52,415 bases of DNA, taken from sequence record NZ_CP077974.1, one strand, 5' to 3'. Source of the DNA: a plasmid. The position numbers were made by a program. Every line of letters starts with the position of its first letter. The first letter of the stretch is position 1. This document shows, one piece after another, positions 3,001-15,000 of the stretch.

Positions 3001-6000
3001 TTGACCCAGATGTCACCGGAGCGCAGCGCGTTCTTCAGCTCGGACAGGGCGCAGATTTCGTAGAAGCGCCGGTCGAGGCCTTCCGGGGTTATCACTAGCG
3101 GCTTCCAGCGCGGCTTGATGAAGGCGGTGGGCGCATCGGCCGGCACCTTGCGCAGGTTGTAGGCGTTCATCTCGCTCAGGGTCTGCACGGCTGCCAGCAC
3201 GCCTTGCGCAGCCGGGGCAGCGCGCAGTTCCAGCACCTCCAGCAAGGCCGGCGTGTAACGGCGCAGAGTGGCGAAGTTCTCGCCGACCAGGTGCAGATGG
3301 TCGAAGCCTTCCGGCCGGGCCAGCAGCTCGGCCTCGCTGACGCTCTCGGTGAACTCGTCCCAGGGAATCACCGCCTCAATGGCGGCATAGGGATCGCTAC
3401 CGCTTTCCTTGGCTTCCAGCAGAGCCTGGCCGATCTTCGAGTACAGGCGCACCTTGTCGTTGATCGCCTTGCCCTGCTTCTGGAACTGCTGCTGATGCTT
3501 GTGCTTCGCGCTGCTGAACAGCTTGACCAGGATACGGTCGTGCAGATCGACCAACTCATCAATCACCGTCGCGGTGCTCTCCAGCACCACGGCGGCCAGG
3601 GTCGCGTAGCGTCGCTGCGGCTCGAACTTGCCGAGGTCTTTGGGCGTCATCTGCCCACCCTCGCGGGCCAGCTTGAGCAGGCGGTTCTGGTGGATGTGTC
3701 GGCCCAGGCCTTCGGGCAAGTCCACCAGCTGAAATGTCTTCAGCCGCTCGATGTGTTCGAGCATGTGGCGGGAGTTCGGTTTCAGCGGTGCCTGTCGCAG
3801 CCAGGTCAACCAGGTGATGCTGCTGCCGGCCTTGAGCTTCAACAGCTCGTCCAGCTTGGCCCGATGCGAGTCCGTGAGTGGTTCGACCAGGGCGCGGTAG
3901 ACTCGGCGATTGGCCCGCGCAATGGCCTCCGAACAAGCTCGATCAATTACGCTCAACGCCGGCAGAATGCGCCGCTTCTGTCGCAGGCTCTCCAGGGCCT
4001 GACCGGCCAGCAGTAAGCCCTTGTCGGTCTGCTGGGCCAACTCGGTCAGCTCGCGCACCAGGGCGCGGAAGTCGGACAGGCCGAACGGGGCCAGTTGTAG
4101 GTAGGTGCGCAGTTCCTGGGCGTGCTCGCGGCGAGTCACGTCGCGTTCGCCGTACTTCAACCAACTCGCCGGGTCGGCCTGAACTTGCTTGGCCACCCAC
4201 TGGATGACCGGCTCGGGCGGCTCGCTGTCGGTGCCCAACGCATAGCCGGGGTAGCGCAGCAGGCTGAGCTGCACCGCGAAGCCCAGGCGGTTGGCGTCGC
4301 CGCGCCGCTGGCGGATCAGCGACAGGTCGGAGTCGTTGAAGGTGTAGTAGCGGATCAGGTCATCCTGGCTTTCCGGCAACGCAAGCAAGGTGTCGCGCTC
4401 CGTAGCCGAGAGAATCGAGCGACGCGGCATGGTTCAGTCGTCCTTGCGAAGGTACTGATAGAGGGTTTCTCGGCTGATGCCGAACTCGCGGGCGAGCTGC
4501 GCCTTCGGCTCGCCCGCAGCGGCCCGCTGCCGCAGCGTGATGGCTTGCTCGTCGGAGAGGGCTTTCTTGCGGCCCCGGTAGGCACCGCGCTGCTTGGCCA
4601 GGGCGATGCCCTCGCGCTGCCGCTCGCGAATCAGGGCGCGCTCAAACTCGGCAAAGGCCCCCATGACCGACAGCATCAGGTTGGCCATCGGCGAGTCCTC
4701 GCCGGTGAACACCAGGCCTTCCTTCAAGAACTCGATGCGCACACCGCGCTGGGTCAGCTTCTGCACCAGGCGGCGCAAATCATCGAGGTTTCGTGCCAGG
4801 CGATCCATGCTGTGCACCACCACGGTGTCGCCTTCGCGAACGAAACCGAGCATGGCCTCCAGCTGGGGACGCTGGGTGTCCTTGCCCGAGGCTTTGTCGG
4901 TGAACAGCTTGCCGACCTCGACCTGTTCAAGTTGGCGTTCCGGGTTCTGGTCAAAGCTGCTGACCCGGACGTAGCCGATGCGGTGCCCCTGCACGATGTC
5001 TCCTTGGTTGAAGGCGGCTTAAGTGCACTTTCTGTTCCGTTGTGCCTCAAAGCCCATTTCTGTCAGGCTGAAATCTATAACCTTCGCGGGCATGTGTCAA
5101 AAAATGGGAAAGCAGACTCTATTCTGACGAAGCGGCGCGGCCCTGCCTGACATCAAGTTAGGGTATAGCCTAGATTGACATGCGCGATGCAACCCTTAAC
5201 TTGCTTGCACCTATCGTTTCCATGCTAGCTTTATCGTAACGCTAAGGAAGCTCTGAAAAAGCCCATGTTTCGCGAAATCACCGCTCTGTAACCCGCATGG
5301 TTGCTGGGATGCATTTCTCGAGCGGGGGCTTTTTCAGACCTTCCTTAGCTTAGCGTACGATTTTTTCCGAATTCTGCGGTTCCCCCTGGAAGACCTACGC
5401 AAGTTGGGCCAGCTCAGAGGTGGAATCAACGAAGGCGAGCGAATGAGGCATCTTTTCTGGCGTCTTAACTTTCTCCTTCTCTCCGGGGCAACAAACAGCG
5501 CCCAGATGTACCATGAGGCCGCCGCTCTTTCCTCCGAGCTGGATACTCGTTGGTCTTACCGCTCCAAAGAGCTTATGACGCTCTACAGCAAGGCGAAATC
5601 CTATGAGGCTGGGGAACGTGTCGAGTTCGGCGGAAAGTCGTTTGCACCGCTATACACGCCCAAAAACGACACGCTGATCAACCTATTCCAGATCTCACAG
5701 CAAGAACAAGAGCAACTGAAGACGATTATCAGCACTGACGAGGCTCAGAAGCGCCGCAGAGAGCGCGATAGACTGCGTGATGAAGAACGTCGCCGCGCCG
5801 CTGGCCAGCTTGAGCGTGAAGCCTATGAAGCCAACTCATTGAGCAGGCAAAAGCCCTGGGAAGCTATGGGCATGAGCCGGGCTAAATGGTATCGCCTGGG
5901 CAAGCCTTCACCTCAACAAAACAGTGAGACAAGTCCCTCCCCTATTACTAATGGCGAAGCCTCAGCGGTTGCCCTTCAGGCGGCCAGGTGTAAAGCCGTT

Positions 6001-12000: not shown

Positions 12001-15000
12001 CTGTCGCCGACCCGCAGCGCCAAGGCAGCGAAGCGGTTCCTGGGCAAGGCCCTGCGAGGCCTGAAGCACTGGGAAAAGCCTGCCACGCTCAATACCGACA
12101 AAGCGCCGAGCTATGGTGCAGCGATCACCGAATTGAAGCGCGAAGGAAAGCTGGACCGGGAGACGGCCCACCGGCAGGTGAAGTATCTCAATAACGTGAT
12201 CGAGGCCGATCACGGAAAGCTCAAGATACTGATCAAGCCGGTGCGCGGTTTCAAATCGATCCCCACGGCCTATGCCACGATCAAGGGATTCGAAGTCATG
12301 CGAGCCCTGCGCAAAGGACAGGCTCGCCCCTGGTGCCTGCAGCCCGGCATCAGGGGCGAGGTGCGCCTTGTGGAGAGAGCTTTTGGCATTGGGCCCTCGG
12401 CGCTGACGGAGGCCATGGGCATGCTCAACCACCATTTCGCAGCAGCCGCCTGATCGGCGCAGAGCGACAGCCTACCTCTGACTGCCGCCAATCTTTGCAA
12501 CAGAGCCTTTCGGACCTTGACGGTGATGACACCGAGTGACCCTCTCGCCCAGCTCATGCTGGGCGAACTATCGGAAGCACCTGCTCTTGAAACAAAGGAG
12601 ATACGCATGCAAACCCTAATGAACAGGATGAACAAAGAATCGAAGCCTTTGGCGGCTGAAGCAGAGACACCGCCTCGCAAACACCCTTTCCAAAAGATGC
12701 TGCCAGAACTGGCGGTCTGGTGCCTCCTCGCCTTCGGCGTCGTCGGCAGCCTGCTGCTTTGGATGCACATCATATGGGTACACATCATTCCTCGCGCTGT
12801 AGGAGCGAACTGAAAGGAGCACGACCCATGCCTATCGAACCACGCACCCTTGCCGCCGTCTTCACCAAGGTCGCCCGCTGCCTTGAGGGACACGATCTGG
12901 CACTGGAGACGCTGGATGACTACAGGGTAGACGCGGCCGCCGGCTTGCTGACCGTGGACCGTCTGCGCGGCTTTCTACAGGGGCTGAGCGCCGCCGGGGC
13001 GCTTCCATACGAGGACTATTGCGAAGTCGACGCGATGCTTGATGTTGGTCCGCGCACTGCTCTTCTAGCCATGCACGTCGACTTGATCCGGGGTCTCGAC
13101 ACTGACCTAGGGGTACGGAGGGCCGCAAGCTGTGCGATGGGCTACCTACAGGCACTCCTAGACATTCAAAGCATCAACTCGGACAGCTACAGGGCGCACC
13201 GAGAGGAAATCCAGAAGTTGGAGCAGGAGCGACTTGAGGAACTTACCTCGTTGCGCCTACTAACGGCAGCCCATGTTGGGGCATCCACGGCGAAGAGGAG
13301 TCAGTGACTGACCGGCTTGGACCGTCTGCCCCCTGTTGCACGTAGGGGCGCAACATCACGCAACACGTACAGATCGAGGAAACCGCATGGAGAAGAACGA
13401 CGCAGTGGACACCCTGATTGCCGCGATGACCGATAGTCGCCTTCCGGTGCCGGTCAGGATCGGTGCCGCGCGAGGCCTGGCGCATATTGGCAGTGCCCAG
13501 GTGCGTGCCGAACTGGTGAAGGTGATGACGAACCAACTATCCCCTATGGATCTGCGGGCCGCCGCTGCTGAAGCGCTGGGGCAGGCCTCGGCCTGATAAC
13601 GCCTACCGATCGAAAGGAACCCACCCCATGACGCTGATAACCCCCCGCAAGCTGCCGCCGCTGACTGACGAGCAGGTGCGCGCCGGCGCGCGGCCTGGCG
13701 AAACCTGGGCCGAGGCGCGGCGCCGATTGGAGGCGCTGAACGTGGCGTGCCCGGCGCCCCAGGTGGATGACCACCCAGGAGCTGACTACACGCTGGCGGG
13801 TCTGGTTGACGAGTGCGAGGGGCTGGATGGCAGGCCCATCGAATGGGAGCCCGGGGAGCTGGGGTAGCCCGACTTGCCCAACGGATAGAAAGGAACCCGC
13901 CCCGGCTATCAAGGCACCTACACTGAAGTGGCCAACCACAAGCAAAGGAGCTGTCGTAATGGCCGACTTCGTGATCAGTGACGTGAAGAAGGTGCGCGAG
14001 GTGTTCGACTGGGTGAGGGTCAACGAGCATTTGGCGCGAGGCTGGGTGCTGCTGAGCATCTCGACCGGGCAGGACGACGTGAAGTCCCCGGCCGTCCGCT
14101 ACATCCTCGGTTGGACCAAGGGCGAGCCGGCCGACTGACTACGCATAACGGGCAGATTGTTAAATCACCCCCCTCGCCCCGCCAGGTCCTGGTCGCCAGG
14201 GATTCCACCCTCGGCGACCACACCCCCCTACACTGGTCTACCAGAACCCCCTACACTGGCGGCCGCGCGAACCTACCCCCGTTCACCCCCTGGAGTTCCC
14301 CATGACCGACTTCGAGGATTCCCCCCACGACGGCCAGCGCCTCGATGCGACCCGCCGCGCCCGTCACGCCCTCGGCCTGGCCGCCGGCGTCACGCCCCAA
14401 GAGGCACGCCGCTGATGCGCGAATCGATCACCGAAGACGCCCTGCAGGCGCTGATCGCCGCCGGCGGCGCCCGCGATACCCTGGTCACCCGCGGCCCGGG
14501 CGGGGAGGGCTGGCAGCTGCTGGTACGCTACGCCGGCGGTGGCCACCACTACCCGTTACGCTCACGCCGTGAACCGCTGCGCGTGTTCGCCTCGCTCACC
14601 CAGCTGGAGCGCTACGCCACCAAGATCGGCCTGCGCGAATTCCGCGTCGAGCTGTAGTCCTACCCCGCAACCCAAGGAGATCGCCCCCCAATGGATGGCT
14701 ACGAACACCCCACCCGCAACGCCACCCCGCACCAGGTCTACCGCCTGTCCTGGCTGGCCTACGTCGGCCCGGTCCTGCTGTTCCTGGTCCTGTGCGCCGG
14801 CGCGCTGGCCCTCGGCTGGTGGACGCTGCACAAGGCGCCGAGCGAACAGGCCTACCAGATCGGCCTGGCGGCCAGTGCCGGCGTCCTGCTCATCGCCCTG
14901 GCACTGTTCGTCTACAAGCTCCTCTACCTGCGCAGTGTCCACCTCTACACCGACGACGTGGGCGTCTGGCTCTACCAGGGCATCCTGCCCTGGCGCCGTG

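Follow-up and report, generated by a model that had tools for sequence, protein, structure and literature searches.

The plasmid sequence NZ_CP077974.1, referred to here as the window and analysed over its full length of 52,415 nucleotides, carries the carbapenem resistance gene blaKPC-2 in a region of mobile elements that extends from position 1431 to position 12507. Among published structures it very probably corresponds to the blaKPC-2 module named "Tn1403-like-deltaTn6296-IS6100", which is derived by truncation from the pKP048-type NTEKPC-I / Tn6296 platform; the module would have arrived on its present backbone by two end-anchored replicative events. In its composition the module is a nested mosaic, made up of an IncU fragment, a Tn4401 fragment, a Tn3 remnant containing ISKpn27, IS6100, and a mini-transposon of the Tn3 family. 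The carriage of blaKPC-2 by the Pseudomonas aeruginosa high-risk clone of sequence type (ST) 463 is a serious clinical problem of carbapenem resistance, and the genetic context of blaKPC influences copy number, stability and ceftazidime-avibactam resistance. The IS6100-linked structure has been found to be more stably retained than the IS26-flanked one (PMC11659478). What the present record adds is the IS6100-linked, megaplasmid-type module on a small type I/IncP-10 backbone, a translocation that was judged "hard to occur" in PMC11659478. The record is of use to epidemiology and helps in understanding the movement of the module; it represents no new kind of element or mechanism.

The identity of the module is given by two alignments. 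Over the 11,077 bp from 1431 to 12507 there is 1 mismatch in comparison with the megaplasmid pWTJH12-KPC (CP064404), and over 5000-11627 there is likewise one mismatch with pKP048 (NC_014312), a synonymous single-nucleotide polymorphism at 10983. This base, in codon 122 of the ISKpn27 transposase, is the sole difference from both plasmids across the module. The platform is already known, and is near base-identical to the module from Chinese P. aeruginosa plasmids, which has been published as "Tn1403-like-deltaTn6296" (PMC8562488), as "deltaTn1403-deltaTn6296-IS6100" (PMC11721088) and, written out by its parts, as IS6100-ISKpn27-blaKPC-2-deltaISKpn6-korC-klcA-Tn1403 (PMC11659478; also PMC12661517, PMC12925581).

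These comparisons also bear on a sequence-only reading of the same DNA, which had described an NTE-KPC core, not Tn4401, on a Pseudomonas-type plasmid, beginning at 5387 and bounded by a Tn3-family module. The near-identity to the Tn6296 platform of pKP048 agrees with that description. The reading had listed IS6100, a Tn3 tnpR remnant, an ISKpn27-like IS481 element with CCTATA at both flanks, the Tn3 bla promoter without bla, the Tn3 inverted repeat (IR), blaKPC, a truncated ISKpn6-like transposase, korC-like and klcA genes, and iterons. All of these are present within 1 bp of where they had been placed, the order being that read along the minus strand. To this picture the analysis adds that the bounding module is a complete mini-transposon, that a truncated repB accompanies the genes beyond ISKpn6, that ISKpn6 is cut at 8097 and that ISKpn27 occupies 10373-11452. 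IS6100 was correctly recognised, although the end assigned to it, 12508, is 1 bp beyond the true end at 12507. The proposal that IS6100 truncates Tn3 tnpR without a target duplication is upheld by its differing flanks and by the tnpR remnant described below, and the deletion or fusion suggested as the cause would fit these. The clinical importance claimed for the context is likewise sustained.

To which class of blaKPC platform does the region belong? By the criteria in PMC10134989 it has the structure of NTEKPC-I, in that ISKpn27 lies between the tnpR remnant and blaKPC and only 6 bp of blaTEM are left, with an Ib-like downstream region of deltaISKpn6, korC, klcA and a truncated rep gene. In NTEKPC-II a deltablaTEM segment separates Tn3 tnpR from blaKPC; what pEC881_KPC (CP019026, NTEKPC-IIa) retains of it, 671 bp, is absent here, which sets the region apart from that class. 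In NTEKPC-III a Tn5563 resolvase and IS6100 stand immediately upstream of blaKPC, whereas here IS6100 is 1.5 kb off, past ISKpn27 and the Tn3 remnant, and the resolvase sequences in the window are those of the Tn3 remnant and the mini-transposon tnpR only. A complete Tn6296 is not present either, given that (i) the Tn3 tnpA and most of tnpR have been lost, and (ii) the tnpA and tnpR of the mini-transposon are about 7% off those of Tn1722; the region is thus a truncated derivative. Finally, the combination that defines Tn4401 (tnpA and tnpR, ISKpn7, a full ISKpn6, 39-bp IRs and a 5-bp duplication) is lacking. No Tn4401 tnpA, tnpR or ISKpn7 occurs anywhere in the window, where 8097-10166 is the sole match to Tn4401a.

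The backbone on which the module sits is of a different origin from the megaplasmid. It is the small ST463-associated kind of P. aeruginosa plasmid known in the literature as type I (PMC8562488) or IncP-10 (bioRxiv 10.64898/2026.08.11.744309), and all 106 of its 106 relatives in PLSDB come from Pseudomonas, as had been expected of a Pseudomonas-type plasmid. Positions 49800-52415 and 1-1430 join as one contiguous stretch in the related plasmid p1011-KPC2 (MH734334), and the window is therefore the complete, closed circular plasmid of 52,415 bp. Within the PLSDB relatives the KPC units are IS26-flanked and at a different position in the backbone. Positions 4047-25503 of p1011-KPC2 (~21.5 kb, including its IS26-flanked KPC unit) are absent from the window, and the megaplasmid-type module is found in their place.

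The two new outer junctions, 1430/1431 and 12507/12508, fall exactly at element termini and are without duplications. Neither junction is in PLSDB, where 240-bp junction-spanning queries returned 0 records at 80% coverage or above, nor do exact 30-mers place them in GTDB representative genomes or JGI metagenomes. In pWTJH12-KPC the block ends at the same outer termini as in the window, and neither IS6100 nor the mini-transposon has a duplication in either plasmid. Some strains harbour the two plasmid types together (PMC8562488 pattern H; PMC11659478). The IS6100 structure has been regarded as belonging to the megaplasmid, and its translocation between the two plasmid types in ST463 as something that "would be hard to occur" (PMC11659478). 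On the small type I/IncP-10 backbone the module is uncommon, though with a precedent in pCRPA34-1, a plasmid with KPC-3 described in a 2026 preprint.

How, then, might the module have moved? The most economical route is by two replicative events between co-resident plasmids. The source would be a megaplasmid in the same cell, and the two end-anchored transposition events could have taken place in either order. One would be intermolecular and generate a cointegrate, either with IS6100 targeting TTTCGGAC of the small plasmid or with the mini-transposon targeting AGAAT. The other would be intramolecular and mediated by the other element, such that adjacent deletion of the intervening DNA would release the present circle. 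Two such events would account for junctions at the exact termini and for the lack of a target duplication at either element. The missing duplication of IS6100 fits an IS6-family replicative event, whether cointegrate formation or adjacent deletion. A number of points weigh against this account. The two-step route is drawn from the end product alone, no intermediate or reciprocal product having been found. Transposition immunity in the Tn3 family should disfavour intramolecular events by the mini-transposon, whose own resolvase should also quickly resolve cointegrates. The names IS6100, ISKpn27 and ISKpn6 themselves rest on RefSeq annotation of identical DNA.

Exact termini free of duplications would also be predicted by homologous recombination, in which a type I plasmid with prior insertions of the mini-transposon (at AGAAT) and IS6100 (at TTTCGGAC) underwent a double crossover with the megaplasmid inside these two common elements, bringing in the KPC core and removing the DNA between. 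The mini-transposon is able to make simple insertions and IS6100 is abundant in Pseudomonas plasmids. Four events would nonetheless be needed in place of two, which makes this course less parsimonious, and PLSDB has no type I plasmid in which one or the other element is simply inserted at these positions (0 records with at least 80% query coverage); we consider it unlikely, while taking it seriously. An assembly artefact, in which contigs of the small plasmid and the megaplasmid were joined, has to be weighed as well, given that the two plasmid types have a common KPC core of 6.27 kb at 99.98% identity, that strains with both exist (PMC8562488) and that the outer junctions are absent from PLSDB, the GTDB representatives and the JGI metagenomes. 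However, a misjoin through a shared repeat would break inside the core, and the breakpoints here are at the outer termini beside unique backbone. The sequence moreover forms a coherent circle, and the 2026 preprint independently gives the same module on an IncP-10 plasmid, which leaves an artefact very improbable.

Transfer of the structure between plasmids has been speculated upon in the literature (PMC12925581; bioRxiv 10.64898/2026.08.11.744309), and two unrelated backbones carry this 11,077-bp segment with outer ends that are identical. Both observations could be accommodated if the segment moved in a single step as a unit or composite transposon, with the Tn3-family left IR (IRL) and IS6100 as its ends. 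Yet no 5- or 8-bp flanking duplication is seen in either context, the ends are unrelated in sequence and are recognised by different transposases, and such chimeras are without terminal inverted repeats (TIRs) or target-site duplications (TSDs) (PMC12925581). For an IS6-type compound transposon, or for a translocatable unit that had inserted, a second IS6100 in direct orientation and an 8-bp duplication would be needed, and IS6100 here is single and devoid of one. There is hardly any likelihood of a one-step transposon; the absent duplication and the single IS6100 were the grounds on which movement of the entire block in one step, and equally a translocatable unit based on IS6100, were rejected.

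Beyond the preferred account of two replicative events in this plasmid, it is tentatively suggested, with the balance somewhat against it, that the 11,077-bp block may act as a recurrent "two-system" mobile unit, having invariant ends, with one Tn3-family and one IS6-family terminus, and moving from replicon to replicon by cointegrate formation followed by adjacent deletion, without target duplications being left. If true, this would explain why surveys meet the KPC chimera on chromosomes as well as on megaplasmids and small plasmids, always without TIRs or TSDs.

Table 1. Coordinates of the module, its component elements and the flanking backbone in the window.
Feature	Coordinates	Strand	Details
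Type I / IncP-10 backbone	1..1430		Corresponds to p1011-KPC2 2617-4046; abuts mini-transposon IRL
Tn3-family mini-transposon, complete	1431..5386	-	3,956 bp; 38-bp IRs, tnpA, tnpR, res
IRL	1431-1468		
tnpA	1464-4430	-	NF033527, 1281 bits
tnpR	4434-4994	-	Resolvase and HTH_7 domains
res region	about 5000-5160		
Tn1721-type right IR (IRR)	5349-5386		
IncU (Aeromonas-type) plasmid backbone fragment	5387..8096	+	deltarepB, iteron-like repeats, klcA, korC-like, two open reading frames (orfs)
deltarepB	5404-6003		C-terminal 199 aa of the 459-aa rep protein in an Aeromonas IncU plasmid
Iteron-like repeats	6141-6361		Four 23-bp copies; 0 expected by chance
orf	6537-6815		
klcA	6926-7351		Pfam Antirestrict PF03230, E=9.5e-27
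orf	7479-7634		
korC-like	7680-7976		KorC name from annotation of identical DNA
deltaISKpn6	8097..9132	+	3' 865 nt of tnpA, with the blaKPC-proximal IR
blaKPC-2	9211..10092	-	293 codons; NF012141 (blaKPC NCBIfam), 684.8 bits
Tn4401 upstream sequence	10093..10166	-	74 bp; promoter P1; 100% identical to Tn4401a
Tn3 IRR	10167..10204	-	38 bp; 100% identical to IR downstream of blaTEM-1 in pKpQIL; also in pEC881_KPC
Tn3 tnpR-bla intergenic region	10205..10372	-	bla P3: -35 10272-10267, -10 10249-10244
ISKpn27	10373..11452	-	IS481 family, 1,080 bp; tnpA 10368-11348; IS481 match E=1.9e-78
Tn3 fragment	11453..11627	-	Intergenic sequence and tnpR 3' remnant; 100% identical to Tn3-type tnpR of pKpQIL and pEC881_KPC
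IS6100	11628..12507	+	880 bp; transposase 11689-12453 (+), 254 aa, IS6 family E=2e-85
Type I / IncP-10 backbone	12508..52415		Corresponds to p1011-KPC2 from 25504, wrapping to 2616

IS6100, which forms the right-hand end of the module (Table 1), is present as a single copy in the window. Its 14-bp terminus GGCTCTGTTGCAAA is found at both ends of the element, as terminal IRs, and nowhere else in the window, and together with the length of 880 bp and a transposase of the IS6 family this identifies the element, whose product is annotated as WP_001389365.1 in identical DNA. The 8-bp flanks, CTTTCAGC and TTTCGGAC, differ from each other, and IS6100 is for this reason taken to be without an 8-bp target duplication. 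Directly adjoining it, the tnpR remnant at 11471-11627 consists of the last 51 codons plus the stop codon (157 nt), with a translation that ends ...KILEDERAS*. The identity to pKP048 stops precisely at 11627.

At the other end, position 5387 is the first base past the IRR of the mini-transposon, which cuts repB. This cryptic element, named "Tn1403-like" in the literature (PMC8562488), has the 38-bp IRs, tnpA, tnpR and res of a unit transposon of the Tn3 family, with the 5-bp duplication seen only in a copy elsewhere. That copy, identical and stand-alone, is in pSRRSH1521 (6002-9957 of the stretch compared), where it interrupts a transfer gene and is flanked by a TTCCT(T) duplication, and the mini-transposon is therefore independently mobile. 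Strain SRRSH1521 has a chromosome-borne blaKPC in a Tn1403 structure (PMC12661517). In the window the element has no duplication and its right flank is the pKP048-type deltarepB. Compared against the Tn1722 of pKP048, it diverges by about 7% over 1442-5041 and by 0 from 5042 on, and because of this drop the alignment indicates that the mini-transposon is a res-site recombinant. Just inside the IRR there is a 24-nt inverted repeat (5241-5264 / 5326-5349), 96% complementary and with a 61-nt loop.

The segment between the mini-transposon and deltaISKpn6 is a fragment of an Aeromonas-type IncU backbone. It is 95-96% identical to Aeromonas veronii p71506-1 from exactly 5386/5387 to at least 8048, a lower bound as the stretch of p71506-1 compared ends there. 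In NCBIfam, Pfam and PADLOC, deltarepB, the korC-like protein and both small orfs matched no family; they were identified by their synteny with, and identity to, IncU plasmids and through the annotation of identical DNA. A repeat of about 94 bp, with 84% identity between its copies, lies ahead of the orf at 6537 (6456-6549) and ahead of klcA (6846-6938). Both copies include the palindrome ATAGGCCAAAATGGCCTAT, which resembles a shared operator and is possibly the target of the korC-like repressor.

The Tn4401-derived piece, 8097-10166, is 2,070 bp in length and has one mismatch to the Tn4401a that carries KPC-3, at nt 814 of the gene in codon 272. This codon encodes His in the window, and the allele is therefore KPC-2 rather than KPC-3, which has Tyr. 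Residue 179 is Asp (Tyr in KPC-33), and the PGDARD motif is intact. Full-length comparison, to which the sequence-only reading had left the choice of allele, shows the gene to be nucleotide-identical to blaKPC-2 of pKP048 (WP_004199234.1), and the best PDB match of its product is 3dw0 (KPC-2), over residues 1-293. From the adjacent deltaISKpn6 the distal IR is missing, as are the first 455 of the 1,320 nt of tnpA. In the coordinates of the pKpQIL stretch compared, the homology to Tn4401a ends at 17979, within the tnpA coding sequence (17115-18434), the ISKpn6 IRs being at 16944-16963 and 18470-18489. The match of the deltaISKpn6 product to the IS1182 profile starts at profile position 148.

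ISKpn27 is recognised by its 1,080 bp, an IS481-type DDE transposase, TGT...ACA ends and a short target duplication, and its product is annotated as WP_013213985.1 in DNA that differs by one synonymous polymorphism. The 6-bp direct duplication CCTATA flanks it at 10367-10372 and 11453-11458, and ISKpn27 is thus considered to have arrived by ordinary, simple transposition, because such a duplication was left. The empty target site is present in pEC881_KPC and pKpQIL.

The region between ISKpn27 and blaKPC-2 is where the Tn3 and Tn4401 sequences meet. Positions 10211-10372 are 100% identical to the sequence directly upstream of blaTEM-1 in pKpQIL. The bla ribosome-binding site, start codon and coding sequence have been deleted, and the only vestige of an internal blaTEM is TGACTT (10205-10210), with which the internal blaTEM remnant of the pEC881_KPC lineage begins, so that this junction is shared. 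In comparison with pEC881_KPC there is a further 671-bp deletion here, at CTT microhomology, that removes the remaining blaTEM. The alignment suggests that the upstream region of the pKP048-type NTEKPC-I may derive from an IIa-like ancestor via this deletion. The sequence-only reading of a Tn3 bla promoter that was kept, a bla gene that was deleted and a Tn3 IR that adjoins them is therefore confirmed by the comparison with pKpQIL and pEC881_KPC.

What drives blaKPC-2 in such an arrangement? The Tn4401 promoter P1 is intact (10138-10166) and adjoins the Tn3 IRR, with its hexamers, as defined in PMC12420198, at 10166-10161 (-35, TAATCC) and 10143-10138 (-10, TTACAT). Every candidate promoter faces blaKPC-2. 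Three promoters, P1, PY and PX, have been placed between ISKpn27 and blaKPC, PY being given as the dominant one (PMC8562488, citing Huang 2020; PMC7771540; PMC12283253). Mutation of GGTTAATGTCATGATAATAAT lowered blaKPC-2 mRNA 4-fold in Klebsiella pneumoniae (PMC13231924). This sequence corresponds to 10348-10368 in the window, approximately 80 nt upstream of the classical bla P3 and adjoining ISKpn27. As the mutation lowers the mRNA, the Tn3-derived segment matters for expression, with the classical P3 probably not the main driver, and the functionally critical sequence seems to sit beside ISKpn27 and not at P3. Transcription of blaKPC-2 proceeds from Tn4401 P1 and, in addition, from promoters located within the Tn3-derived segment of 206 bp and where this borders ISKpn27, an account in which promoter orientation comes from the present analysis and function from the literature. 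The earlier statement that the Tn3 bla promoter is oriented to drive blaKPC hence stands, on sequence geometry.

A hybrid promoter-like site, facing blaKPC and scoring 11/12 in a consensus scan, was also observed at 10378-10351 (-), with a -35, TTGACA, formed by the final six bases of ISKpn27 and a -10, GATAAT, in Tn3 sequence. The site overlaps the sequence whose mutation reduced blaKPC-2 expression in PMC13231924. That mutation turns the hybrid -10 GATAAT into TATAAT, yet expression drops, and the drop would count against the hybrid site as the main driver if the construct included the IS end.

Within the backbone, about 6.7 kb of the type I sequence of p1011-KPC2 is missing, including genes for a DNA cytosine methyltransferase and for TrfB-like and PapB-like regulators. 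A 78-bp tandem repeat (13 copies, 95% match) at 37574-38589 lies within a YadA-like adhesin gene, and this region varies among related plasmids. The backbone also has anti-CRISPR genes (acrF3 and a second acrF), a HigB/HigA-type toxin-antitoxin system and an MvaT/MvaU-type nucleoid protein, at about 16112-16770, 17182-17767 and 17828-18190; the names are those under which the genes are annotated in a 99.98%-identical plasmid, with coordinates assigned by identity.

The module can be related to several known systems. With Tn4401, as represented by Tn4401a of pKpQIL, it has in common 2,070 bp at 99.95% identity, comprising blaKPC, the 74 bp upstream with P1 and the proximal two-thirds of ISKpn6, but it is without the tnpA, tnpR, ISKpn7, P2 promoter and IRs of Tn4401 and without the distal end of ISKpn6. 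The NTEKPC-IIa element of pEC881_KPC has the same tnpR-bla promoter sequence, the same bla 5' deletion junction between TTGAAAAA and TGACTT and the same junction of IRR and Tn4401; it keeps 671 bp more of blaTEM and is without ISKpn27, so that the type found in the window resembles IIa with a deletion and an ISKpn27 insertion. In pKP048 the Tn6296/NTEKPC-Ia platform has the same res, IR, deltarepB, klcA, korC, deltaISKpn6, blaKPC-2, Tn3 IRR, bla promoter region, ISKpn27 and tnpR 3' end. However, pKP048 retains a complete Tn3 tnpR and tnpA, while here IS6100 replaces everything past the last 157 nt of tnpR, and the tnpA and tnpR of its Tn1722 are replaced here by a module that is about 7% divergent.

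Among plasmids of the same backbone, p1011-KPC2 and pSRRSH1002-KPC (CP064398) are 99.6-100% identical to the window in their backbone and have the same 6.27-kb KPC core, but in these the core is bracketed by IS26, often in several copies, and is at another backbone position; no IS26 is present in the region of the window examined. The plasmid pCRPA34-1 (bioRxiv 10.64898/2026.08.11.744309) has IS6100-deltaTn6296-deltaTn1403 on an IncP-10 plasmid, a likeness drawn from its description, and differs in carrying blaKPC-3, in its size of 75,165 bp and in its ST1076 host. A near-identical module is that of pWTJH12-KPC, also found in pSRPA1308 and pLHL1-KPC-3, which has the same gene order, breakpoints, ISKpn27 duplication and IS6100/tnpR junction. 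There it resides on a megaplasmid of ~395 kb with both outer flanks different, and here on a type I/IncP-10 plasmid of ~52 kb.

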